Below, piece by piece: positions 22,790-54,400 of a stretch of DNA of 64,000 bases. Source of the stretch: Pristiophorus japonicus (taxonomy: Eukaryota); contig NC_091998.1 in NCBI RefSeq assembly GCF_044704955.1, positions 44,516,001 through 44,580,000 of the forward strand. Reading direction: 5' to 3'. The notes below the pieces were generated by a model, which was not told the DNA's origin, did not search any database, and saw only the letters and a list, made by a program, of their open reading frames with translations. The position numbers and the translations under genes are program-made. How positions within the stretch are numbered: position 1 is the stretch's first letter; each line of letters opens with the position of its first letter.

Positions 22790-24930
22790 GGCTGAATTTC
22801 AAATTCAGTTGGAGGGTGAGAAAATTGGGTCTCAAACCAGTGCCCTGATCTTAAAGGTGATTACAAAGGTATGAAAGCAGTTGGCTAAAGTGGACTGGGA
22901 AAATAGATTAAAGAGTAAGACGGTTGATAAGCAGTGGCAGACATTTAAGGAAATATTTCATAACTCTCAACAAAAATATATCCCAGTGAGAAGGAAAGAC
23001 TTTAAGAGAAAGGAGAACCATTCGTGGCTAATTAAGGAATTATTAAATTAAAAACAATGGCATATAATGTTGCCAATATTAGTGGGAGGTCAGAGAATTG
23101 TGATATTTTTAAAAATCAGCAAAGGACTAAAAAAATAAGAGAGAAGATGGATTATGAGAGTAAACTAGCAAGAAATATAAAAACAGATATATAAAAAGGA
23201 AGAGAGTAGTTAAAGTAAATGTTGGTCCCTTAAAGGATGAGATTGGGGAATTAATAATGGGGAACAGGGAAATGGCAGAGACTTTGAACAAATATTTTGT
23301 ATCGGTCTTCACGGTAGAAGATACTAAAAACATCCCAATAATAGATTATCAAGGGTCTACAGGGAGGTGGGGAACTTAAAACAATCACCCTAACATTAAA
23401 GAAAAAGTACTAGGCAAACTAATGAGACTAAAGGTGGAAAGTCCCTTGGACCTGATGGCCTGCATCCTAGGGTCTTAAAAGAAGTGGCTGTAGAGATTGG
23501 TTGAAATCTTCTAAAATTTCCTGGATTCTGGAGAGGTCCCAGTGGATTGGAAAACCTCAAATGTAACGCCCCTATTTAAAAAAGGAGGGAGACAGAAAGC
23601 AGGAAACTATAGACCAGTTAGCCTAACATCTGTCATTGGGAAAATGCTTGAGTCCATTATTAAGGAAGTAGTAGCAGGATGTTTGGAAAAGCATAATACA
23701 GTCAAGCAGAGTCAGCATGGTATTATGAAAGGGAAATCATGTTTGACAAATCTGCTGGAGTTCTTTGGATTTCCAGAAGGCATTCGATAAGGTGCCACAT
23801 AAAAGGTTACAGCACGAGATAAGAGCTCAGGGGTTTGAGGGTAATAAATTAGCATTGATAGAGGATTGGCTAACTAACAGAGACCAGAGAGTAGGGATAA
23901 ATGGGTTATTTTTCGATTGGCAAACGGTAACTAGTGGGATGCCACAGGGACTGGTGCTGCGGCCGCAACTATTTACAATCTATATTAATGACTTGGATGA
24001 ACAGAACAAGTGTAATGCAGCCAAGTTTGCTGATGATACAAAGATGGGTGAGAAAGCAAGTTGTGAGGAGGACACAAAGAATCTGCAAAGGCTAAGTGAG
24101 TGGGCAAACATTTGTCAGATGGAGTATAATGTGGTAAAGTGTGAGGTTATCCACTTTGGCAGGAAAAATAAAAAAGCAAATTGTTATTTAACTGGTGAAA
24201 GATTACTAAATGCTGCAGTATAGAGGGAACTGGGGTTCTTGTGCATGAAACACAAAAAGTTAGTATGCAAGTACAGCAAGTAATCAGGAACGCAAATGGA
24301 ATGTTGGCCTTTATAGCAAGGAGGATGGAGTATAAAAGCAGGGAAGTCCTGCTACAACTGTACAGGGTATTGGTGAGACCACACCTATAGTAATGCGCAC
24401 AGTTTTATTTAAGCAGGGATATACTTGCATTGGAGGCAGTTCAGAGAAGGTTCACTAAGTTGATTCCTGAGAGGAAGGGGTTGTCTTTATTAAGAAAGGT
24501 TGAGCAGGTTGGGCCTATACTCATTGGAGTTTAGAAGAATGAATGTGATCTTATTGAAACATGATACTGAGGGGGCTCGACAGGGTAGATGCAGAGAGGA
24601 TGTTTCCAGTTGTGGGGGAATCTAGAACTGGGGGCATAGTTTAAGAATAAGTCGTCGCCCATTTAGAACTGAGATGAGGAGAAATTTATTTTCTTAGAGG
24701 GTCGTAAATCTATGGATTTCTCTGCCCCAGAGAGCTGTGGAGGCTGTGTCATTGAATATATTTAAGGTGGAGATAGACCGATTTTTGAACAAAAAGGGAG
24801 TGAAGGGTTATGGGGAGCGGGCAGGGAAGGGGAGCTGAGCCCAAGATCAGATCAGCCATGATCTTATTAAATGGCGGAGCAGGCTGCAGAGGCCAATGGT
24901 CTACTCCTGCTCCTATTTCTTATGTTCTTA
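22790..24930 (+). mobile_element. CR1 LINE ORF2 remnant and 3' end
   Basis: DWKTSNVTPLFKKGGRQKAGNYRPVSLTS, DFQKAFDKVPH, KFADDTK; tail ttcttatgttcttatg. Confidence 0.92.
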
Positions 24931-31210: not shown

Positions 31211-31300
31211 GGAGTAGAGTAGAGTAGAGTAGAGTAGAGTAGAGTAGAGTAGAGTAGAGTAGAGTAGAGTAGAGTAGAGTAGAGTAGAGTAGAGTAGAGT
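31211..31300. repeat. (GAGTA)18 pentanucleotide microsatellite
   Basis: Direct reading. Confidence 0.95.
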
Positions 31301-33491: not shown

Positions 33492-36400
33492 GTAGGGGCT
33501 CACTGCATCATTTCGTCTTGTCTTTGCTTAACATGCACACAAGTTCACTTTCCAGCAATGATCGTTGGATAGTCAGCAGCAGAACTTGTCTTCCCACCGC
33601 ATAGGTCTTACTGCACTATAACCGACTGTGCCCCTGGTTTCTTTATCTTTTTCTTCCTCCTGAAGCCCTGGCATCCTCTGGGGCAGTGTTTCTCAAACTG
33701 GAAACCGCAGACCCCTGGATCCATAGAGACGTTCCAGGGGGTCCGCAACCGGAGGTAATTTCAAGCCCGCTTCTCTTTATAAAACCGACACAGATTCAGT
33801 TCTTGTGACTTATTCTCAACGGCTGGGCCTGCCTCCTTACAGAGGCCCACAGCGCGCTCTCACTTTGCAACGAGCGCTCCCTGCCTGTCGAGCCAATTCC
33901 TCTCCCTGGCGTCACGATCCTGCGCTGACCTCCCGACACGTGATCAGAGCGCCTGCAGGGCCCTTCAAACACATGCCTGAACGAGTTCACACACACACAC
34001 ATACACTCCCACAGTGTAGCTGTTACAGAACATGCCAGTGGGACGGTATGGCAATGAGTCATGCTTCCAGCAGCATCCCAGCATGTGCATGGGTGCTCGT
34101 GCCCTCACGCACCTTGGCCAGTCTACTGACGGCTTTAAAAATTGTCCAGCACTAAGTGGCTAATAGTGGCCATCTGTTGCTTTGGAGTACCCAGAGTTGA
34201 TGTGAGAAGCAGGCACACACATCCCACTGATATCTGTAAGTAAATACCTGGTTTCTTAAAAGCATTATTAAAATGCTTTTACATACAGCACTTTCATATG
34301 AGTATTGTATAGTATTATCATTTAGATGGGGGCGTCCGTGATTACTAATCAATTTGAAAAAGGTCCTTCAACTAAAAAAGTTGGGAACCACTGCCGTTGC
34401 ATGTTGAGACATTATTGGTGACTAGCTTTACTGGTCTGAAGTTGTCATGTTTCTTCTGCCTAGGTTTGGCTGGATACTAAGCATTACATGAGCAGCTAAC
34501 TCATTCTGACTGTCACTCATTGTTGCAGGGGGACCCCCCAATCCTTTGTAACCAAGCTGTCAAATAATCAGATATCTGAACACTATTCTACCTGCATCAA
34601 ACTGTGTTCTGAAAATGTAAGTAGATGGCTGTCTTTGTGCTCACTTTAGAACTGAACCAGCTTGTCCTGTGCAATCTCAAAATGTTTCATGATTGGAAAA
34701 GAAAATGGGCCATCTCGTACTCCTAGGTCCTGTGGCTAGAATAACCCAGTACTTGTTGAATCCCTTTGAAAGGATCATCCTAAGTGCATAATCTGGGCTG
34801 ACACTCCATTGCAATTCTGACAGTGTTGCATTGTGAGAAATGCCGTCCTTCAGGTGAGGCTTGAGATCACGTCTACCTGTTCAGGTGATAAAAGCTATGC
34901 CAACAACAGGGAGCTCTCCGGGCATCCTGGCCAACATGAGTCCTTCAACACCGCCATTAAAGTTTAACTGGCCATTTATCTTAAAATCGGCAAATGGTGG
35001 CAATTTGAACTAAACAGAAAATGTTGGAAATACACAGCAGATTGGTCAGCACCTGAAAGAGAAAAAAAGGCAGATGAAGGTTTCAGGTGTAAACCCCGTG
35101 TCCTGCTGTTTATTTCTAGCTTTTTTTTGTGGGATAATGCTGGTGTAGTATGATACTAGTATGATGGTTGCGTTGCCTATACAGCATCAGTCAGTGTAAT
35201 TCATCCTGTGAAACATTGATGTGACAAAATGCTTGTTACAGTTTAGGATTTCTTTGCCCATTCTTTCACGCAAAGGACTTGGACATCATCTATGTTAAAA
35301 TGTGTTTTTAGCAAAAGCTTCTCAAGATAACCCCGAGGCTGGTGGATCTGTAGGCTAATAATTAATCATTCATTTGTGAGATGGGGAATTGCTTCTTTCT
35401 GGAACTAACCATTGGCCAATACACTGGCACATCTAGTCATGCAGAAAGACACCTAGCACCCTTGGTGTTGAAGAACTCTTTTGTGATCTCTGGGTTGGGT
35501 AAGAGGCTATTAAACTCATTAGGTCAGTCAAGCTGGCTACTCCAAGTGTTAACTCAATCTACCTTTTAGAGAGATTGAAGGAGTACACGTGCACAAGACT
35601 TGGAGATCCAGTCCAGGTCACAATGGAGCTTCATTGTTACTTTTCTGGATCCTGCTATTGCATAAGTATAAGACGGAGAGTCAAGTTCCATTTAAAAAAA
35701 GTCAGCACTCAGGCCACTTGAAGTGATTGACACCACTGAACCTATCTGCCACGGTTGTGTCTATTTGCAACACCAAATTTCTGGTTGATCCCCTTGGAGG
35801 ACAAGACTAGATTTCTGATTGGTCCCCTTGGAGAACAAGACTAGATTTCTGATTGGTCCCCTTGGAGAACAAGACTAGATTTCTGATTGGTCCCCTTGGA
35901 GAACAAGACTAGATTTCTGATTGGTCCCCTTGGAGGACAAGCCTAGATTTCTGATTGGTCTCTTGGAGGACAAGCCTAGATTTCTGGTTGGTCCCCTTGG
36001 AGGACAAGCCTAGATTTCTGGTTGGTCCCCTTTGAGGACAAGCCTAGATTTCTGGTTGGTCCCCTTGGAGGGCAAGACTAGATTTCTGATTGGTCCCCTT
36101 GGAGGACAAGACTAGATTTCTGATTGGTCCCCTTGGAGGACAAGACTAGATTTCTGATTGGTCTCTTGGAGGACAAGACTAGATTTCTGATTGGTCCCCT
36201 TGGAGGACAAGACTAGATTTCTGATTGGTCCCCTTGGAGGACAAGACACACTCAACAGTTTGTCTGGAATGTATAATTTGATCCAGCCTGCTGGAGTAAT
36301 CTAGATCTTTGCAATGTGTAATTTGATCCATTCATTGTAACAGCCAGGCTCCAAAGCTCACAGTGTTAACACTACTGCTTTCAGAGAACAGACAGGGCTC

Positions 36401-39400
36401 GCATTCCTGGGTTAGCAGCTGTCACAGTGCTCACACTGTCGAGTTCAGATAGGAAAGGGTGAGGCCATAGAGGGATTTTAACATGAGGATGAACATTTTA
36501 AAATCAAGGTGTTGGTGGACAGCGTTCCAACGACAATGGTGGAAATTTTAGCAGTACTATATAAATCCAATATTTATTCTGTTACTTTCGTAGAAAATCA
36601 CCACGAAGAATGCCTTTGGTCTTCACCTGATTGATTACATGGCTGACCTCCTCAAAGAGAAGGAATCTGAACTCACCAGCTTCAAGGTTAGTAAGGCATA
36701 CAATACGCAAGATATTATTCAATTGATTCCTATAATATCTCCCCTGTGACTTTACTAGAGGGCCAGACAATTCCTTTCGGACTTCTGCAATTTCACAGTA
36801 GCCATGTAACTGACATGATCTCTTAGCTTACTATAGTTTGGATTACATCTCATTAATCATCTTCTGTTACTGATATGAAGGTAAAGTGCTTGAGATGTGC
36901 CCTGTTACTTTTTTTGTATTTAGTTCAGTGGATGTTAGAACATAAGAATTAGGATCAGGAGTAGGCCATTTGACCCCTCGAGACTGCTCCGCCATTCAAT
37001 GAGATCATGGCTGATCTTCGATCTCAACTCCACTTTCCTGCACTATCCCCATATCCCTTGATTCCCTTAATATCCAAAAATCTATTGATCTCTATCTTGA
37101 ATATACTCAATGACTGAACCTCCATAGCCCTCTGGGGGTAGAGAATTCCAAAGATTCACTACCCTCTGAGTGAAGAAGTTTCTCCTTATCTCAGTCCTAA
37201 ATGGCCGACTCCTTATTCTGAGACTGACCCCCTGGTTCTAGATTCCTCAGCCAGAGGAAACATTCTCCCTGCATTCTACCCTATCAAGCCCTGTAAGAAT
37301 TTTGTATCTTTCAGTGAGATCACCTCTCATTCTTCTAAACTCGAGGGAATATAGTCTTAGTCTACTCAATCTCTCCTCGTAGGACAATCCCCCTGTCCCA
37401 GGAATCAGTCTGGGATTTGTAATGTTAGTTATTACAAATCCTTTAGACACACGATTTTGGAGTCCAGTGTCCCAGCTCTTAAGCTAATAAAATGTTACAT
37501 CGGTAGAAATCCTTTGACTGCAACAACATGCAAGTCTTGAATGGGTTATAATTTATTCTGAATTTTCCCCACTGCAGTCTCTCTCTCAGTGATCCCTCCA
37601 CTTCTGCTCCAAAGCAGGGTCTTTTATCTGTCAAATTCACTGTCAACGTTCCACCTTGGTTTCACAGTTTCAGTTATGACCTAATGAGCAAGTTGTATTC
37701 TAGACCACAGCAGGTCGAGTCCACTTTTGAAATACAAAAGTATAAGAACCCCGGGTAAGAAAGAGGTAGGATAGATGACAGCCATTCCTAGGACCACAGT
37801 ACCAACAGTAAACCATTGACCGAGTCACAGTGTGCATCAGCGTCAAATGTCATGGTTTTTAGTACACTTCACCTGTTGTGGTTTTATCTTCAATATTTCA
37901 AGTACAAGAAATGGGAAATCTGACTAGGGAAGAAGCCCTGTGCCTCCAAAGAGAGGTCAAAGAGTAAGATACATGACTGAGGAAGCTGTTATTAACCAGC
38001 CATATTAAAAGTAGTAGTTATCCATCAACAAGGGGTGCAGATTAACATTGCAGTCAGAGGCACACCAGTCTGCAGTAATGCTCTTCAGTCCAGGACAGGT
38101 TTCTGGCCCATATTGGTCCTCAGCGTCTTGAACTACTTTATTCATAGGTTGTTGAAGATGGTAACCTTCAGGCCACCGGTTCAGTTAACTGAATGGATCT
38201 CTACAACTCAGTATAGTGTATTTTGGTTTGCCCCATTAAAGATTCTTGGAGTTTAATATAGTGAGAGTGAGCGACTGATGCAAAGGTCTGCCATTTGGCA
38301 TGACGTCAGTACCCAGATTGCAATGCTTGACAGTAAAGGCAGCTTTCTCGACACCTTCATCTCTTCCCATGCTTAGACAATTGGTTCAACTAATGGCTTT
38401 CCCAAAACTGCACAGTTCTGAGTGCTCCAGGAACGCTAGAATACCTTATAAATGACTCGAGCCATGTTGGAGCTCGCTTTAGCCGCATACGTATTCTTCG
38501 AATAGAAAAATGGGAGGTAATCTCATTGAAACATATAAGATACTGAGGGGGATTGGCAGGGTAGATGCTGTGAGGTTGTTTCTCCTGGCTGGAGAGTCTC
38601 GAACCAGGGGTCACAGTATCAGGATAAAGGGTCGTCCATTTAAGACTGAGATAAGGGGGAATTTCTTCACTCGAGGGTTGTGAATCTTTGGAATTCTCTA
38701 TTCCAAAGGGCTGTGGATGCTGAGTCTTTGAGTATATTCAAGGCTGAGATAGACAGATTTTTGGAGACTCAACAGCTATGGGGATCAGGTAGGAAAGTGG
38801 AGTTGATGTCGAAGATCAGCCATGATCTCATTGAATGGCAGAGCAGGCTTGAAGGGCTGTATGGCTTACTCCTGCTCCTAATTCTTATGTTCTAACAGCA
38901 AGCTGCTTATGTGTACAATGCGACTGCTCAAGCTACCCAACACTGATGCTTCATTTTTACTGGATATGGTCATATCAAAGTCTTAGAGGGACAATGTATT
39001 ATTTGTATAATGGTGTGTTTGTGCGTGGAGGTTGAACCTCAATCTATGGCTGTATGTACAGTAGGTAATTTAATCTATTTTGCTAATTGTTAACTGAAGT
39101 AACGTGTGTGCATCTCGACGATTTGTTAACCTGGTACTTTCTAACTGGTTACAGATGGCGGCTGGCACATTGGATGCTAGCACTAAGATCTATGCTGTGA
39201 GGGTGGATGCTGTTCATTCAGACGTGTTCAGGATCCTGGGGGGCTTGGGGAAGAACTCTGAAGAGCCGGGTGCAGGTGAGCAACTGCAATATTATATCTT
39301 CATTCTTGTTTAAAAGGCAAGTTTAGTTTTATTACTCCTCACCACTCTGGTGCATCATTAAATCACAAGTACAGCAGTTATAAGATGAGCAAAAAGTCCT

Positions 39401-42400
39401 ATCTTACAGTGAAATGCTAGATTGTTTTCCCTCCAGTTCCCTTGTATAAAAATATAAACATAGAATTGTGATTTAGGGAGCTGGGAAAGGCCTTGGTTTC
39501 CTTTTTTAATAAGTTTTCAATCCCTCTATGTTCCAACATACAATGGCTGTGCTTTCTCTGTCCAGAGCTAAACCCTGATTCTACTGATGCCGAGAACGCA
39601 AAAGGCTCTCAGAAACAACACAGAAAGAAGCACTCGTACAAAACCATTGAACAGAACTTGAGCAACATCACGTACGGAGCGAGTGACATGAAGTGTGAGG
39701 TGAGATTATTTTTCCTCTCTTGAAGGTGGCCATACGATTCAGCGGGCGCCAACAATCCCTCTGCGATTGAGCAAGTGACCGTTCTTCTTGTGTAATCCTT
39801 GACAATAAACAGGCTGTTCAACCATAGACTGCACCTCCCAAACCCACAACTCTACCACCTAGAGGACAAGGGCAGCAGGTGCATGGGAACACCACCACCT
39901 AAAAGTTCCCCTCCAAGTCACACACCATCCTGACTTGGAAGTATATCTCTGTTCCTTCATCGTTGCTGGGTCAAAATCCTGGAACTCCCTCCCTGACAGC
40001 CTTTTGGCTAAGATCATGCGTACCTGACCTGACAGGGGAGTAACCATGACCAGAAAGTGGTTCTCCCTGGATCAGGAAGGTGGTTCTCCTATGCTTTTTG
40101 GAAATAGGAGGTGGGTGGGGGGGCTTGACCCGTCCACCTCCATGGCACGAACCTGGTATTGCAGTACTTCCAGGAACGGTGCTTTGGCTCTAGGCCTTTT
40201 GGCTAAGAGCAAAAACATTGGCGCAGAGTGATCCTTGAATGGGCCCAAGGTGACCTTTGGCGTTTATGACCTGACAAGTTGATCTGACAAAGAATTGGAA
40301 AGATTGGCAACGAATAAAACATAAAAAATAAAAAATAAATCTGTTCTTATCAGTTGGCGTTTATGATCTGACAAGTTGATCTGAAAAAGAATTGGAAAGA
40401 TTGGCAACGAATAAAACATATTTAAAAAAAAAAAAATCTGTTCTTATCAGTTTAATATCCCCTATGGGGACATGATATTGAATTGATTTTTGGACAGGGA
40501 GCTGGATCAGGGGCATGCCCCGTCCACTCCATGCACCGACCTGGTATTGCAATATTTCCAGGAACGGTGCAACTTCGCCTCTCGGCCTTTTGGCCTAAGA
40601 TCAAATATATTGGCGCAAAGTGATCTTTGGCGTTAGAGTTGATCTGGAAAGAAATTGGACATAAAAAAAAAAATCTGTTCTTTCAGTTTAATGGAACAGG
40701 GGCTTGCCCTGTCCACTCCACGCACCGACCTGGTATTGCAGTGTTTCCAGGAACGGTGCAGCTTCCCCTCTCGGCCTTTTGGCTAAGATCAAGTGTAAAT
40801 AGCGCAAAGTGATCTTTGGCGCTGGAGTTGATCTGACAAGAATGAAAAAAAAATCTGTTCTTATCAGTTTAATATCCCCTATCTGGGGACCAAATATTAA
40901 ATAGATTTTTGGAACAGGGAGATGGAACAGGGGCTTGCTCCGTCCACTCCATGCTTCGACCTGGTATTGCAGTGTTTCCAGGAACGGTGCAGCTTCCCCT
41001 CTCGGCCTTTTGGCTAAGATCAAGTGTAGTAGCGCAAAGTGAGCTTTGGCGTGGATTTGAGCTGACAAGAATGAACATGAGAAAAAAAAAATAAGGACTG
41101 CCTGAGGTTTTGCTTGAAAGAGAGTGCTGGCTTTTTTCATGCATTGCTGCTGAACGGGAGTGCTGAGTGCTTTTGAAGTGTTGCTGCTCAATGGCACTCT
41201 CTGCGAATTGACTGATTGCAGAAACTCGTCTTTCCAGTTTGGCCACGTCTGGCTTTTTGGCTCGGGTCAAGCACCAATTGGGGAGAAGAAGAAATCTGCA
41301 TGTCGACCGACCAATGTGGTCCGCCAAGGTGCCGGACTGGCACCACGAAGGATTGAAGGCTTTGGCCAAAACACAAGCCCAAAGGAGGAATCTGCAACCC
41401 GGATGGCGGCCAACCGAGCGGCGAACCAGGGCGTCCGAAACACCATCCGAGTGACTGTAAAGAAAGTGGAAGGACAGACGATGATCAACCGGGACCTCTT
41501 CATGAAGAAAATCCTGCTTGAAACCTGTGGCATGAAAGTCGCGTATGTCTTCGCCTTGCAGGACATCCGGAAGAGAGGTTACTTTGATGTAACCTTCAGA
41601 AACGTCACCTAATGCCTGAAATTCCTGAAGGGATTGAAGGAGGCGAGTGAACCACTGCGGTCAGTGCTGACTTGGGAACCACTGTTCACCCTCCCGTTGC
41701 AGAGGAAATAATGCACATGTACAACCCCCACATCCCGGTCATTGATGTGCTGACGTTCCTCACCAGGTATATCGATGGGGCAGGAAACAGCATCGACCTG
41801 AAAGACTTCCACGGGATTTGGACCAGCAAGCGCCAGATCCAGGTCACCATGAAAGTGGACGCCAGCGGAACCATCATGCACCCCCCCACCAGCTTCGCAA
41901 CCGGAGGAAGTCGGGGCTACATGGTGTATGCCGGACAACCCAATGTGTGCCGAACCTGCGGGAAAGCAGGCCACGTGGCGGCAAGCTGCAAAGCAATCAT
42001 TTGCCGCAACTGCAAGAAGGAAGGACACCAGATAAAGGACTGTAAAGAGAGCAAGTGTGATCAGGCTGGACATCTGTACCAGGCCTGCCCCAAGCGGAAT
42101 TTCAGTTATGCGCAGGCGGCAAAGAACATGGTGACATGTGAGGAGAAAGCTGAGGAGTGCAACGCCCAAGAGGAGACCGACACCTCCCTCCCCTCCAAGA
42201 CACCGTACGAACAAGCCACTGCCCTAGTCGACACTGACCAGGAGGAGGAAGGAAAGTCTGCCACGGCAAGCCGCCAGACACTAGCACCCAGCAGTGAAAC
42301 TCCCCCCCCCCCCCCCCCCCCCACCCCCGAGACACCGAGTCCATGGAAGAGGAGGGATCTGAAGCAGAAGGAAAACAGGAATGGCAGCTCGTCGAGAAGA

Positions 42401-45400
42401 AGGCGGCCCGCAAGTCAAAGGAAAAGGGACCGCCTGCAGAAACGAGAGGCAAAAAACGGCTACTGTCCACGACGGACAGCAGTGGCTACAGCTCATCCGA
42501 TGATGAGGGGCGAGGCAAAAGCCCCCACTACCACCAGCAGAAGAAGAGGCAAAACGCCAATGCGACCAGTGCAGTCCAGCTCCGGGACCCCGGGAGCAGT
42601 GAAGTCACCAATGCACATCTGCTCTGGATTTCTGGGAGCAACGAAGCAACAGATGAAACCCAGCTCTGGATTTCCAGGAGCGAAGAAGCAACCGATGCAA
42701 CCCCGCTCCGGATCTCTGGGAGCGACGAAGCGACAGATGCACCCCAGCTCTAGAACGCTGTGAGCGACGACACCACAGGGGATGCACACAAGGAACAACC
42801 AACACCAGGTGAGGGCAGCCCAGTTGACATGGAGGACTCCCCGTCCACACTGCTCGTGTCCCCTTGTCGAACCATCCCCAAGGCAGAGGACAACCCATAT
42901 CTCAGCCAAGGTGCAGTAGAAAAGTTTAAAGTTAACCTATGTATACGGGAACAGGTCACAGGGCCAAAGGACTGAGTGTTCGAAATGTAATTTTTGGATT
43001 GTAATCACCAATTTAAAAATGGGTTTAAAGATTGCATCCATTAATGTGCGTAGCATTAAGACAACTACGCGATGTGTTTCCACCTTGGGGTACCTCGCCA
43101 AGGTCAAGGCAGACCTGCTATTCTTGCAGGAGCTGCCGCACTTCAGCAGTTACCGGCAGTGGTTGCAATGGTGGTCCCACGGACCATCCGTCTGGTCAGG
43201 AGGCAACGATTGCCGTTCCTCCGGCCTGGGCATTCTCCTGCGGGAGGCCACTTTACCATCACCGAAGTTAAGGAGGTGATGGGTGGCTGCCTCCTCATAG
43301 CAGATGTATTGTATAAAAATGTTCCTCTAAGGCTAATTAACGTGTATGCCTCGCCTCTCAGAAGCGAGCGGCTGGCCCTCCTCCAGCAGCTCCCACTGCT
43401 GCTGGGGACATCCAGACCGGTCGTTCTGGGCGGTGATTTCAACTGCATCATCGATGCGGCTGGACGATCCAGCAGAACCGACAGCAAACTGGACACCACA
43501 TCCAAACTCCTGATGGACGTGGTAAAAGATGGCAAGCTGTGCGACGTCTTCAGCAACCCTGCAGATGGAGCACCGCGCAGATACACCTGGTCGAGACCAG
43601 ACTGGTCCGTCCATTCCAGAATAGACTTCCTGTTTGTGTCCCACATGCTCAAGGTCAGATCCACCGACGTCATGCCAGTGTTCTTCTCTGACCACTGCCA
43701 CCTACTGGCCGACTGCCTCCCACAGGAAGACCAGAAAGTTGGCAGGGGGATATGGAAGCTCAACGTGAAACTGTTGACCCCGGAAAATGTTGAGGAACTC
43801 TAGGGATTACAAAGGTTTGGGAACCGTAAAACCCCTCTAAGATTCTCCGATGCACTGGTGGGAAACAATCAAGACAAACGTCAAGAGGTTCTTCATCCTC
43901 AAAGGTGTTCAGGAGGTGAGAGGGAGACAGAGGGAATTGTCCCAACTCCAGAAGAGTATGCAAAACCTGCTCCTGCTGCAGTCGATGGGGATCGATGTTG
44001 CAGAGGAACTCCAAGAGGTGAAGGGCCAGCAAGTCTCGCTCTTTGCCTCAGAATCCTCCAAAATCATTTTCCACTCCAGAGTCCGCTCCGTCGAGCAGGA
44101 TGAGACGTGTTCGCGTTTCTTCTTCCAAAAGGTACACTGGGAGCTCTGTGATCAGCAGCCGAAAGGAAGAAGATGGTTCTGTGACGTCTTCACAGCCCGA
44201 CATGCTGAGGATCAGCAAATCCTTCTATGCCGGGCTGTACAACGTCAAGCCCACAGACCGCGCGGCCTCCCTGTCTTTCCTGTCGTCTATCTCAGAGGTC
44301 TTAGACGACAGCGAGCGGGAGAGTCTGGACCACCCGCTAACTCTGGACGAGATGACAAAGGCCATCCGGTCCTTTGCGAAGAGTAAAACTCCCGGAAGCG
44401 ACGGCTTACCGGTCGAGTTGTATTCGGCTCTGTGGCACTGGATGGGCCCAGACCTGCTGGAAGTGTACTGGGGTATGCTTCTGGCCGGCAACATGTCAGA
44501 ATCAATGAGGAAAGGCATCATCACCCTCATCTACAAGCAGAAGGGGGAGAGGGAGGAAATCAAAAACTGGCGGCCCATCTCGCTGCTCAATGTGGATTAC
44601 AAGATCCTGTCAAAGGTCATTGCAAACAGGGTCAAGTCTGCTCTGGAGCTGGTGATCCACCCGGACCAGACCTGCGCTGTTCCCGGCAGGAAGATCTCTG
44701 ATAGCCTCGCTCTACTCAGGGATACAATCGCCTACATGCGGGACAGGAGGGTGGACACCTGTTTAATCAGCCTGGACCAGGAGAAGGCCTTTGACAGGAT
44801 ATCGCACACGTACCTGATGGACGTGCTCTCCAAGATGGGGTTTGGGGAGGATATCCGCAATTGGATCCATCTGCTCTACACAGACATCAGTAGCACAGTT
44901 CTAATCAACTGGTGGGAAACTGAAAGCTGTCCCCTCTCCTCTGTCTTGTTTATGTGCTTTATCGAGCCCTTTGCCGAGTCCATCAGGAAGGATGTGAGCA
45001 TTAGAGGGGTGACGATTCCAGGCAGCAGAGGCGCTCAGGTCAAGACCTCCCTGTACATGGATGACGTCACCGTCTTTTGCTCGGATCCGCAGTCGGTCCG
45101 CAGATTGCTCACGATCTGCGACCAGTTTGATCTGTGGCCTCGGGAGCGAAGGTCAATCGCAGCAAAAGCGAGGCCATGTTCTTTGGCAACTGGGCCGACC
45201 GATCCTTTATTCCCTTCACTGTTAAACCAGATTACCTGAAGGTGTTGGGAATATGGTTCGGAGCGGACGGGGCGTGCTCCAAAAACTGGGAAGAGCGTAT
45301 TGCCAAAGTGAAACAAAAACTAGGATGATGGAAGCTGCGTTCCCTCTTCATCGCAGGAAAGAACCTGGTCATCAGGAGTGAGTTGCTCTTGGTGTTGTTG

Positions 45401-48400
45401 TACGTGGCGCAGGTCTAGCCCATCTCGCGCTCCTGCGCCGCGGCAGTTACCCGGGCCGTCTTCCACTTTGTCTGGAGGTCCAAATGGACCGTGTCCGCAG
45501 AGACACGATGTACAAATCTCTGGACAGTGGAGGAAAGGATGTTCCGAACATGGCCCTCATCCTGATGGCCACCTTTGTGTGCGGCTGCATCAAGCTGTGC
45601 ACCGACTCCCGGTACGCAAACACCAAGTGTCACTACGTGCTGAGGTTCTATCTGTGTCCGGTATTGCGAAGGATGGGTCTGGCCACGCTGCCGCGAAACG
45701 CCCCCACCAGTTGCACCATACCTGTCCTTCGTGGAAAAGTTTTTTTAGAAAAAACCCCTTTGACCACAAGGCCTTAAAGAAGTGGTTGGCACGTAAGGTC
45801 CTGGATGCCCTACAAAAGGAGGAGAGGGTGGACCCTGTCGGGTGGTTCCCCGAGCAGACTGTCAAACTCATCTGGCAGAACGTTTCATCGCCAGAGCTTT
45901 CACACAAGCACCAAGACGTAGCTTGGTTGGCGGTGAGGAGGGCCCTACCCGTCAGATCCTTCATGCACAGCCGGGGTTTCAGACACACAGCACTCTACCC
46001 CCGAGTTGGCTGTGGTGTCATCCATCTCCTTCGGGATTGCCCCTTTGCAAGGCAGGTCTGGAAGGAGATGCAGTGGTTGCTGTCGAGGTTCATCCCAAGC
46101 AGCTCCGTAACACAGGACTGAGCTCTACGGGCTGTTCCCAGGGACACACACTGACACAGACATCATCTGCTGCTGGAGGGCCATCAACTCGGTGAAAGAC
46201 GCACTTTGGTCTTGCCGAAACTTGCTGATCTTCCAGAGCAAGGAGATGTCCACGTCTGCGTGTTGCAGACTGGCGCAATCCAAGATCCAGGAGTATGTGC
46301 TGAGGGACGCACTAAAAATTGGTGCAGTCGCCGCAAAGGCACGATGGGGAAGAGCCACGGTTTAAAGCCCTTCCGCCATGGTAAACCCAGGGGCTGGAAT
46401 CAGTATCCCCTCGGGCTGTACTTGTAAACTTTTTGTATACATAGGTTTTTTAAGATCATGGTGCTCTATGTAGTGCCATGAATAATGCAAGTTCTGTTTA
46501 GTAATGTATGTTGCAAAGAAATGTAACTGTACCCTCACCCATTCCGTGTACCGTATAGTGTCACTAGTAAAGTAATTTGATGACTGTATTACAATGTATC
46601 CTGGATTGTACTGAAATATACCTCAAAATGTAAAGCAAGCAAATGTGTTGAACGGAATTGCCATTAGCATCCAAATGTAATGTATGGAATTGCTGCCCGC
46701 ATCCAAATGTACTGAACTGCCTTCCAATGTATTGTGCACATTTTTATATGAATAAAGTATATTTAGAAATTTTAAAAAACTGCAACGGTTCAAGAAGACT
46801 GATCACCACCTTCTCATGGGCAATAAATGCTGGCCTTGTCAGCGACGCCCACATCCCATGGATGGATTTTTTTTTAAAAGATGGAATTGTGGCTGTGCTG
46901 AACCCTGTCCTTCTTGACTCCACATATGCACACTTCCAGGAGAAATCACTGAATACCAATCAGGAGCAGGGGCCTTGTTTTCTTTTTAACATTAACATGG
47001 AACTATGATATTGTGTACCAGGAAGCTGAGGATGGTTCTCATCTCCTTTTATAATTTTTAGAATCTTCTTCTGTGTGTTTGTCCCATTGAATTATGTAAT
47101 TATAGTCCATGGAATGTAGATCTTTTTCTAAGTAACAATTTTACATCATAATGAGCTGATGAAATGAAGAATGGATAGCAACTTACATTTCCCAATATAA
47201 ATGAGGAAAAGAAGATGGAGAGATCTTTGTTTTAAGAAGCCAAACAAAAGAATCCTAGTTCCGAACACACTGCAGGTGAAGTTTAATGGACACCTTATAT
47301 TTTGCAGATTGACCCAATGTTCCAGAAAGCTGCCTCGATGTTTGATGAATGCAGCACAGTGGGGGTTTTCATGGTTAATCTCCAGACGTATGGACACTCT
47401 GCTCAGTTGCTTTTTGATTCAGATGTCAAGCTCATTCAAACTGGTCCTGCACCAGAATTGCCGCCCATTGGCCACGTGGAGATATCTGATCTTGGAGGCA
47501 AGTTTTTTTTTAAATTATCGCTGAATGGTAACATTTCTGTGTCTGCAGAAGTACTTTTACAAGTTTAGTATCCCTAACGATTGTTATCTTATCTTCTCCT
47601 CCCGAAGAGGATAATCTATGCTAATCCACTGTATCCGGTTGCATGCTTCTAGTCACTTACATTAGAATATAATATAGGAAGCAGAAGTAGGATATACGGC
47701 CCCTCGAGCCCGCTTGATTTTCATATACCTTGATTCCCCTAGAGTCAAAAAATCTATCAATCTCGGCCTTGAATATACTCAACGATTCAGCATATACAGC
47801 CCTTTTGGGGTAGAGAATTCCAAAGACTCACAACTGTCTGAGTGAAAAAAACTCAGTCTTAAATGGCCGACCCCTTTTCCTGAGTTCTAGACAGGGGAAA
47901 CAGCATCTATTATCTTCCCAGCTCTCAGCTTCTACCCTGTCAAGCCCTCTCAGTATCTTATATGTTTCAATCAGATTACCTCTATCATTCTTCTAAACTC
48001 CAGAGAGTATAGGCTCAATCTCTCACTCTTGGACCATGATTACACGCTGATTCCGAGTAGCATTTCTGCTTTTGGTGAATCTTTCCAGTTAAGGTTCTCA
48101 GCTCACTGGACTGTAAGTGTCAGTGTGATTGGCTAGAGCAAGTCAGTTTGGGTGATAGCTAAGTCACTGATTAGGTCCACAGTTATTTCTCTAACATGCA
48201 ATTAACAGTCAACTTTCTTTATGTAATGGACAGTACCTGGGGAAGGGCTGGCTCCAGTCTGGTGTGGTAATGTTAATTCATAACTGGTTGCCGGATTAGT
48301 GACCGACGGCCCTGAAATCCGGTGGCGCATTCGACCAGCCCTGGTGTGCCTGCGCTGTCTGGCAGTGATTATAAATCTACCAATGAGTTTTCCCAGCAAA

Positions 48401-51400: not shown

Positions 51401-54400
51401 GAAAGCTGACGACACTGCCTACAGATTTCCATTACAATCCAGACAACATTACCTGTCTGTTCCTTAAACCTTCTGTCACGGTAAATGAAGCACCTTTTCC
51501 AGTAAATTCAAATAATGAATCGCGCGATCTCAAAACAATCTGTCATATTTCACTTTCGTTGAGTGTTCACAAGTCGAGGCACCTTGGAGAAGCCCAAAAA
51601 CATGGTGCCCGAGAGTACTAGGAGCTGGGCTCAATTCCATACTTCTCCATGTGATGAGTTTCCATTATTAGCTGATCCACTGCGGAGAAGCCAGCTGCTT
51701 TCTTTTAGGGCTGGAAGCTGAGAAGAATGATGACCCTATACCCACAAGTGGCAGGAAGAAGCTCGAGAACAAGTAGCCTGCGCTTGTGGCTAGAATTGTG
51801 ACTTAACAAAAAAATAGAATAAGAGGAAAATTACTTAAATGAGAATGTCTGTCAGATGGGGAGCACGCTCTCGTAAAACTCCCACTACATTGTTACATCA
51901 TGTGCTGCAGGTTAGATACACATGGCTCCGACTCTCTCCCCTCTAACCCCAACTCTAGAGCACCCCTTACTGCACCAATTTGACAGGTAGTTGGTCTTTA
52001 CTCCTAGTTGGGAGGGGTAGTGTGCTCCTTGGAGTATGGGAATAGGGCCCAACTGCTGCATTCTTCAGGGTACTGCAGTGATAAACATTTCACAACTTAT
52101 CCTGTGCCTACAGACTGGATGTTGGTTAGTACATCAGGAGTGGAGTTAAACGATGGACTGTGAAGCATTCTGGTGTGTGTGTATGTGTAAAATAATTCTG
52201 TATTCTCCATTGAATTGTGTATACCTGGCCCAGGAGTGTTTGAGGCTAACACTAATGTTCCCTCTAAGGCTGCGCGGCTGTGCAGTAATGGGGAAGGCTG
52301 CTCACCGCCTTTTACATTGTAAACACCGCGCATGCGCAGAAATTTAAAGGGACCGCACATTAAAAGAAACGGGCTGCGCAGAACAAAGCGCAGCTCACAG
52401 GGAACATTGGCTGACACCCTATGTTCAAGTTAGAGTAAGGGTTCCATTTTCTACTGTTGACTTCCCTCACCTTGATCAGTATGAAACTTTTCACCAAAAT
52501 TGACTGTTTGCAGATAAAGCGGATTGTGAAAGAAAGTATCAACTCGGACCAAGATGAAAGAATCGGGGAATATGATTATAACAACCCCAACGATACTTCA
52601 AACTTCTGCCCTAGAGTTCAGGTCTGTATCTATTGCTTGCACATTCCTCCTGCAGATTTTTCTAAAATGGCCAACATGACCATGAACTACTTGTGACTTT
52701 TTAAATGTTTTTATAAATTCCTTTCTTGGCATCGCTCCCCTTTTTTATTTTTCCGACAGATTGATAGCGATGATGAGCATGATGGGTTTGTTGCTGCAAA
52801 CGACTCCTTTGCGATGGAGCAAGACGAGAATGGCTTGGCGCTAGATGGGAAGGGGTTAAACATCACAACCTATGGAGGAGAAAACCTTGTGGCAGAGCCT
52901 CAGAAAGTAAGTGGGTTAGATAAGAACATAAGAAATAGGAGCAGGAGCAGGAGTAGGCCATACAGCCCCTCGAGCCTGTTCCACCATTAATTAGATCATA
53001 GCTGATTTTCGACCTCAACTCCACTTTCCCGCCTGATCTCCATATTCCCTGATTCACCTAGAGTCCAAAAATCTACCAATCTCAGTCTTGAATATACTCA
53101 CATGATTCAGCCCTTTGGGTTAAAGAATTCCAAAGTCTCAAAACCCTATGAGTGAAGAAATTTCTTCTCATTGCAGTCCTAAATAGCTGACCCCTTATCC
53201 CCCCCTAATTCTCGACTCTCCAACCATGTGAAACAACCTTTCAGCATCTACCCTGTGAATCCCCCTCAGAATCTTGTATGTTTCAATGTGATCACCTCTC
53301 ATTCTCCTAAACTTCAGAGAGTATGGGCCCATTCTACACAATCTCTCCTCATAGGGCAGCCCTCTCCTCCCAGGAATCAATCCAGTGAACCCTTTGTTGC
53401 ACCGTTTCTAAGGCAAGTATACCCATCCTCGGGTAAGGAGACCAATACTGTGCATCGTACTCCCAGAAGTGGTCTCACCAAAGCCCTGTACATTTATAGC
53501 AAGATTTCCTTACTCTTGTAGAGTTGCATGCTGTAGTCTAGACTGCAAAGCTACATGGCTGTGTATTCAGGCAGTGTAGGGGACTGGCTCCTGTGTGCGT
53601 GGTTGGAGTAGAAATACTTAGTCTTGAGGTTTCAGCAGGCCCTGCATTGGAAAATAAGAGCTGCTGGCAAATGTTCTTATTGTGGGGATGTGTGACAATG
53701 CGCCAACCTGACTCACTTATAACAAGGAAGAGGGGCATATGCCGCAGAAAGTCCAGGTTTGATCACTGAAGTTTCTTATTGGAGTATGGCCCGCTGATTC
53801 TACTACACAAAGGGTCACTGTGTTAGACACTTAGGGCCCAAGTTTCCACAAGAAAGAAAACGGGCGCCTGCGCCTAAAACGGCGCCTAAAAAAATCCTCG
53901 GTATTCTCCACCTACTTACAGGTCCTCTGGCCCTCGGCGCAGCCAGCACGAGCTGTGGGGAGGGGGCGGAGCCAGGTCCCTGCGCTGAAAACAGTGCCGG
54001 GACCTCTGCACATGCGCGCTACAGTCGGCACGCAAGTGCAGTAGCTCCAGGCACCGAACTGTGTGGGAGGGGCCCGAAGCACGCAGCCCCTAGCCCTGGC
54101 TGAATGGCCTCACTGGGGCTGCGTGAATAAGGCTCCTCCCCCGACCGGACCCGACACCCGCTCCCCCCTGCCTCCGGACCAGACCCGACCCGACACCCGC
54201 TCCCCCCCCGCCCCGCCGACCAGACCCGACCCGACACCCGCTCCCCCTCCCACCCCATCGCTGACCAGACCCGACCCNNNNNNNNNNNNNNNNNNNNNNN
54301 NNNNNNNNNNNNNNNNNNNNNNNNNNNNNNNNNNNNNNNNNNNNNNNNNNNNNNNNNNNNNNNNNNNNNNNNNNNNNNNNNNNNNNNNNNNNNNNNNNNN

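Follow-up and report, generated by a model that had tools for sequence, protein, structure and literature searches.

In a stretch of 64,000 nucleotides (nt) of the Pristiophorus japonicus genome (contig NC_091998.1, positions 44,516,001 to 44,580,000; here called the window), a row of pieces derived from U2 small nuclear RNA (snRNA) stands directly ahead of a Tx1 long interspersed nuclear element (LINE), which raises the question of whether the two form one mobile unit or are separate arrivals. The original prediction took the row for five U2 monomers joined head-to-tail without spacers, serving as a monomer-array 5' untranslated region (UTR) that is mobilised together with the LINE. The units of the array are instead independent short interspersed nuclear elements (SINEs), which belong to abundant SINEU-like families of this genome, and the locus is probably a pile-up of separate retroposition products, in which four poly(A)-tailed SINE units, termed A, B, C' and C, lie beside the LINE. 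The array is made up of the following parts, given in window coordinates:

40000..40339, + strand: SINE unit A, consisting of U2 12-35, U1 ~4-57, a U2 3' part, U2 7-30, a 107-bp tail and an A-run
40340..40436, + strand: duplicate of the A tail, consisting of U2 nt 39-52, a second A tail and an A-run
40437..40673, + strand: SINE unit B, from U2 nt 39, consisting of a U2 3' part with a stem-II deletion, U2 2-30, a 58-bp tail and poly(A)
40674..40853, + strand: SINE unit C', from U2 nt 39, with an internal deletion and loss of the Sm site, followed by U2 7-35, a tail and poly(A)
40854..41094, + strand: SINE unit C, from U2 nt 39, consisting of a U2 3' part, a read-through flank, U2 7-38, a tail and poly(A)

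As predicted, 40000-41031 is filled by U2-derived sequence, and three Rfam U2 matches above the gathering score span 39985-40997. The monomer count did not hold, since five U2 5' pieces are present with four 3' halves, and tails and A-runs intervene. A non-U2 tail of 43-107 bp and an A-run follow every U2 5' piece except the first, which gives four tails, one duplicated tail and five A-runs (40323-39, 40424-36, 40663-73, 40845-53 and 41082-91). Directly after each inner A-run comes U2 nt 39, the site used by the element Keno. Junctions between a U2 end and a U2 start do exist (40575, 40764-69 and 40995-41000), but they are internal to the SINE unit. The extra letters at this head-to-tail junction match what lies 3' of the genes of one U2 type in the same genome, and we infer that it records a 3'-extended U2 RNA fused to a U2-headed precursor; the earlier suggestion of a relic of U2 read-through came close to this likely mechanism.

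Unit A is 5'-truncated at about U2 nt 12, and its U1 portion (nt ~4-57) scores 73 against the U1 genes of the genome, the best of 1000 shuffles reaching 32. It has 28 near-full matches among the loci compared, the best at 88.8%; unit B is 98-99% identical to loci L134, L093 and L095, and unit C about 96% identical to its free copies. The units are 76-86% alike, they fall into three families, and their combination is unique to this locus; on these grounds an L1-like array of homogeneous monomers common to full-length copies was rejected. Functional U2 genes were also rejected, as none of the units is contiguous over U2 1-188: B and C are without the stem-II segment of true U2 genes, and C' is without what we take to be the Sm motif, which B and C retain. 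The 97-bp duplication at 40340..40436 (Tandem Repeats Finder period 97, 92% matches) arose either through slippage at the site or through another truncated insertion that duplicated its target. A, B and C' share a predicted hairpin stem in the tail; the z-scores (0.57, -0.82, -1.32 and 0.36) are not significant.

Evidence that the units are free-standing elements comes from genome searches, each of which scored the best 40 of about 900-2,100 candidates and is therefore non-exhaustive. The tail motif, homologous among the units, has 2,866 exact matches in the genome and its control none. With unit C as query, and 40 of 1,434 candidates scored, 29 further loci emerged, two of them being arms of one duplication. 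These free copies of ~280 bp contain a near-complete U2 with the stem-II deletion, U2 7-38, a tail of ~45 bp and poly(A), and 22 of the 29 are flanked by target-site duplications (TSDs) of 9-28 bp, as against 1/29 in the control; to none of these loci is the 5' end of the window's LINE joined. Free A copies measure about 370 bp, and all free A and C copies are A-tailed. At locus L046, a single TSD encloses both a SINE C copy and a U1 5' piece added ahead of it, and at locus L096 a SINE stack is preceded by a row of five pieces, each of about U2 nt 12-52, in head-to-tail order.

The available text of PMC4494074 (Kojima 2015) describes SINEU-1, -2 and -3 of crocodilians as snRNA-headed poly(A) retroposons with tandem insertions that sandwich a TSD; it reports them from crocodilians only, leaves their transcription open and names Mariner-N4 as the preferred target. 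The description is repeated in the accessible portions of PMC5381603, where SINEU is given as crocodilian, and of PMC5786205. The link to SINEU and to Keno drawn in the original prediction is upheld. The array units are short and non-coding, with a U1- or U2-derived head and a poly(A) tail; they form dispersed multicopy families with TSDs and are not one-off pseudogenes, and they have a target in common with a Tx1 partner, which is the U2 nt 39 boundary and not Mariner-N4. Recurrent 5' snRNA additions and tandem, TSD-sandwiching inserts are further points of likeness, and for the crocodilian elements, too, it is a common target that points to the Tx1 partner. Unlike the crocodilian elements, for which no copies in U2 genes are described, the present SINEs carry their target, U2 38|39, themselves and have near-identical copies residing in U2 arrays; the likeness to crocodilian SINEU is one of described features. 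In the literature searched, with Repbase, Dfam and subscription papers outside its scope, no SINEU is described in sharks and none as resident in U2 genes.

The LINE that follows the array comprises these parts:

41095..41101, + strand: target-like 7-nt match between the SINE poly(A) and the LINE
41100..41299, + strand: Tx1 5' UTR, with a ~60-nt leader that is partly duplicated and no U2 piece behind the leader
41300..43018, + strand: open reading frame 1 (ORF1) region, with RBD_ZCCHC3 and zinc knuckles (Pfam), stops and frameshifts
43019..46365, + strand: ORF2, broken, with APE and reverse transcriptase (RT) pieces (Pfam)
46366..46779, + strand: Tx1 3' UTR, with AATAAA and an A tail ending at 46779

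The array indeed runs into a Tx1-type element, with a ZCCHC3-RBD/zinc-knuckle ORF1, APE and RT pieces and an A tail to 46779. This LINE copy is coding-dead, as its ORF2 is alignable only as eight pieces over three frames. Elements within U2 genes have an intact ORF2, to which that of the window's copy is 88% identical in DNA. Mobilisation of the array and the LINE as a unit was not borne out. U2-derived DNA directly upstream in sense orientation is found at 0/29 other 5' ends in each of two overlapping sets, so that these other copies of the family lack the U2 leader, and the array–LINE junction is spanned by the window alone among 40 scored of 1,408 candidates. The last 4 nt of 41095..41101 recur at 46780-46783, which makes them a candidate short TSD of the LINE; most other LINE 5' ends have TT, not CT, ahead of the leader.

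SINEs also meet related LINEs elsewhere. They have inserted, with 17-18-bp TSDs, into an internal U2 piece of the LINE at L134 and L173, and they stand with their own TSDs at LINE 5' junctions at L131/L099, L132/L039 and L176. A SINE stack ahead of a LINE thus arises repeatedly and independently, with differing contents. At locus L019, which is the same as L086, a SINE cluster lies upstream of the LINE on the opposite strand. Inverted pieces of the same element precede the Tx1 copy at L002, L003 and L011, as in 5'-inverted insertions or head-to-head pairs.

The place where such elements accumulate is the U2 gene. The junction of poly(A) with U2 nt 39 occurs at 93 exact genome sites (control 0). 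Among the first 30, there are 17 insertions of SINE A into B or C heads, five of Tx1 into SINE B heads and, in U2 genes, two of SINE A and six of SINE B; because many are segmental duplicates, 30 sites are not 30 events. In stretches of U2 arrays chosen for having the site, SINE A is present in 3/5, 2/12, 1/12 and 2/11 units. Both B and C keep U2 1-52 and are therefore targets; in SINE A, U1 replaces the site, and it is never seen as a host at its own head. Full-length Tx1 elements, the youngest of their lineage among those sampled, sit at nt 38|39 within U2 tandem arrays (L124, L125), U2-resident Tx1 having an intact ORF2 of 1,145 amino acids, and nested stacks are found within U2 loci (L121-L123).

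Keno, a member of the Tx1 clade attributed to Kojima and Fujiwara (2004), reportedly uses an APE endonuclease. Its 3' target is given as the U2 string from nt 39 in the available text of PMC6136364 and PMC4640811. In the U2-resident relatives L119, L123 and L124, which encode APE and RT, the terminal poly(A) is succeeded by U2 nt 39, the published target as far as those texts give it; their insertion host is a SINE B head in L119/L123 and a U2 gene fragment or SINE A in L124. The window's LINE resembles Keno in its Tx1-type ORF1 and its ORF2 with APE and RT domains (Pfam); in contrast to Keno, the window's copy and 29 close kin lie outside U2, and it behaves like a Keno derivative whose specificity has been relaxed. 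As this subfamily is without U2 preference, the site-specific step is assigned to its U2-resident sister. Utopia, according to the accessible text of PMC4640811, has a restriction-like endonuclease, the same 3' boundary at U2 nt 39 and occasional tandem insertion in U2 genes. The elements studied here share with Utopia this boundary and the tandem insertion in U2 genes, but their ORF2 has an APE domain.

The U2 genes are of two types, which differ in their upstream and 3' flanks. One, the C9 type, is spaced at about 18.5-21 kb, and the second lies in ~770-bp tandem units; genes are located at G000:C9:110.99-111.32 Mb and 113.4-113.8 Mb, at C19:69.6-69.7 Mb and on C1832, C1868 and C4309. In the reverse complement of L124 (8643-8790), a 3'-truncated fragment of U2 nt 39-131 with a long poly(A) stands between two tandem Tx1 copies, and with respect to the second copy it sits at nt 38|39; it resembles an oligoadenylated U2 RNA that was retroposed to the same site.

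The model proposed for the stack is that a Keno-type endonuclease would nick U2 between nt 38 and 39 wherever this sequence is present, and that reverse transcription would be primed at the nick on any poly(A) RNA held by the enzyme. The U2 head of the new copy would pair with U2 1-38 of its host, and the elements would stack 5'-ward into each other's heads, first C, then C', B and A. SINE A, being without the site, would end the stack, which may explain the A-B-C order. The LINE would have entered the same older repeat in an insertion of its own, at a distance of a few bases, and the seven target-matching nt between the last poly(A) and the LINE suggest two insertions a few bases apart.

The same site may provide the SINEs with a promoter, as a copy inserted at nt 38|39 would have a seamless U2 +1 as its 5' end. 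A resident SINE A was used as a query, and its 30 best matches (40 scored of 1,352) comprise 17 resident and 13 dispersed copies. The resident copies are preceded by U2 +1, and their tails are followed by U2 nt 39; 16 of the 17 show the upstream flank of the U2 array, the remaining one being at a contig end. The dispersed copies are 99.1-100% identical to the resident query, two of them at 100%. None of the 13 has the array's upstream flank or downstream U2, and all begin at or after +1, as predicted by transcription from a U2 promoter; four match from +1 (partly microhomology), and in five another SINE head follows. On balance, it seems that these SINEs, without a promoter of their own, are transcribed from U2 gene promoters through copies at nt 38|39. 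Chances appear about even for the wider proposal that this SINEU-like lineage gains its promoter by homing: a Keno-type LINE would drop it at U2 38|39, its head would restore the 5' end of the gene, and the elements, because the SINEs and some LINE 5' UTRs contain the target, would also nest in one another.

Several points weigh against this account. No TSD surrounds the array alone, the candidate TSD of the LINE is only 4-5 bp compared with 9-28 bp elsewhere, and three of the seven remnant bases could derive from the LINE leader. The age test does not separate the parts, with private substitutions of 6/574 in the array and 15/933 in the LINE (p=0.5) and of 0/223 in unit B alone (p=0.09). In the window's LINE subfamily, U2 nt 39 follows none of 29 close-kin 3' ends, nor that of the window. 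The identity of resident and dispersed copies gives no direction, as U2 arrays could be sinks homogenised by recombination, and we infer both the homing enzyme step and the SINE transcription step from sequence.

Owing to the short TSD and the inseparable ages, a single template-jump event stays a serious rival, possible though doubtful. After reaching the 5' end of the LINE RNA, RT would have jumped to the poly(A) of another RNA, from a SINE or a SINE stack, so that array and LINE arrived jointly, as a one-off chimera that was never one RNA or family. This would fit two observations: the array alone has no TSD, and relative to the empty site in locus L093 the target has lost ~24-27 bp over the full insert. 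Another poly(A)-tailed element stands right upstream of several kin (L005, L009, L017, L024, L030), and the available text of PMC4494074 describes, for SINEU, 5' sequence gained through template switches. The target-like bases between poly(A) and LINE are, however, unexpected after such a jump, and no donor with the same four-unit stack is present among the 93 junction sites or the best 40 unit-C matches.

It is rather unlikely that the stacks themselves arose, instead of through repeated nicking, from template switches of the RT at U2 nt 39 or from nested-U2 read-through transcripts primed at an inner poly(A). Dispersed composites inside one TSD (L034, L091, L103, L129) fit a composite RNA, and nested stacks lie inside U2 loci (L121-L123); in contrast, inner insertions are flanked by TSDs made of the site itself (L095, L100, L134, L173), and a fairly uniform B is paired with several A subfamilies (by eye). 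Such events are compatible with the preferred pile-up by repeated insertion at some loci. The tandem array as a heritable Tx1 5' UTR, like mouse L1 monomers and possibly mimicking a small nuclear ribonucleoprotein, is largely refuted and very improbable. In its favour, the array adjoins the LINE 5' end and the 3' side is free of U2, and sister subfamilies have U2 ~1-44 in their 5' UTR. Against it, the array is absent from the other 5' ends (0/29 and 0/29), its junction is unique among the 40 scored, poly(A) runs lie within it, its units occur elsewhere as poly(A)-tailed SINEs flanked by TSDs, and the LINE copy is coding-dead.

The idea that U2 sequence can be part of a two-ORF LINE nevertheless stands for these sisters, in the form of a short piece, and fails for the window's own subfamily, at whose 5' ends the piece is absent. 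Among eight exact matches to the leader, U2 nt ~1-44 lies behind it in five and is absent in three, the window included; at all seven selected leader–U2 junctions the sequence beyond is Tx1, and in no case an intact U2 gene. Sister subfamilies with the U2 piece in the 5' UTR are represented by L132, L135-137, L140, L141 and L173-179, and by eye L134 and L141 carry it. An unrooted ORF1 tree of 55 pieces forms a ladder from U2-resident through U2-headed copies to the window's subfamily, with L083 placed among the U2-headed copies. Parsimony, and only that, suggests loss of the piece in the window's lineage.

U2-headed Tx1 elements had already been described. As far as the available text of PMC4494074 goes, Tx1-11_Crp has a U2 head, and Tx1-2_Crp, Tx1-2B_Crp and Tx1-4_AMi carry U1 heads. 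The sister subfamilies resemble the Tx1-11_Crp type as two-ORF Tx1 elements with an snRNA-derived 5' end; they differ in that U2 nt ~1-44 often lies behind a further leader of ~60 nt, and the window's subfamily differs in being without the piece. Under the proposal of promoter gain by homing, some Tx1 subfamilies may have taken part of the snRNA promoter with them as this leader and become independent of U2 loci. Where the leader sits ahead of the U2 piece, it occupies what we take to be the position of the proximal sequence element. When compared with -66..-40 of two U2 and two distinct U1 upstream types, its score does not clearly exceed that of shuffles, 44-466 of 1000 reaching it. An octamer-like motif occurs in the Tx1 5' UTR just behind the U2 piece at L132, L174, L177 and L179; it resembles one 204-205 bp upstream of U1 genes and is altered in the window.

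This locus as such is a one-off. The literature, as far as it was searched, has no SINEU-like families that occur in animals other than crocodilians and home into U2 genes, and to the same extent the present families extend snRNA-headed SINEs beyond crocodilians. Their near-identical copies inside U2 transcription units offer a testable answer to the transcription question that Kojima left open; if true, promoter gain by homing would explain how snRNA-headed SINEs without internal promoters are transcribed. The SINE/Tx1 family looks recently active, given two dispersed copies 100% identical to resident ones and an intact ORF2 in a U2 array. The insertions interrupt a fraction of the host's U2 genes, and the system is a natural model for the way in which a non-autonomous RNA can be mobilised in trans to a specific site of a conserved multicopy gene.

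The surroundings of the insertion are as follows:

39155..39274, + strand: NCAPH exon (condensin subunit; Cnd2), Pfam Cnd2 E=2.7e-13
39821..39999, + strand: older repeat tail, 5' part, the target of the insertion, which resumes at 46780
46780..46880, + strand: older repeat tail, 3' part, non-U2

A second Cnd2 match (Pfam), near 47310-47498, is the downstream NCAPH exon, and the whole insertion lies inside one NCAPH intron in sense orientation. The older repeat, presumably CR1-like, is known in empty-site versions from loci L093, L169 and L020, those of L093 and L169 having been recovered with a loosened pattern after a stricter first one gave none. As predicted, the 3' flank is not U2 and continues the older repeat tail of the 5' side, about 24-27 bp being absent when compared with the empty site in L093. 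SINE or LINE insertions in this tail were noted at several loci (L020, L029, L033, L057, L075). No hot spot is claimed, because among the other 3' ends of the window's LINE subfamily 1/29 lies in the older repeat tail and 0/29 in U2.

Short pieces of the window's ORF2 are 71-81% identical to Heterodontus predicted proteins, which points to a cartilaginous fish as the probable host. Two Heterodontus predicted proteins (P0066 and P0083), a cadherin-domain protein and an ABCC5-like one, include pieces of Tx1 ORFs, owing either to mis-annotation or to exonisation. Among the nearest matches listed, the Takifugu RT BAD04856.1 is 39% identical, and none bears the name Keno; we take BAD04856.1 to be possibly KenoFr1. 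A 42-bp tandem repeat of 3.6 copies lies in the C-terminal region of ORF1 (window 42621-42770). Elsewhere in the window there are a weak RT match of another retroelement (23497-24193, 28-32% identity) and tandem arrays of 5 bp x18 (31212-31300), 34 bp x14 (35777-36247) and 41 bp x3 (54143-54277), the last adjoining an N run.

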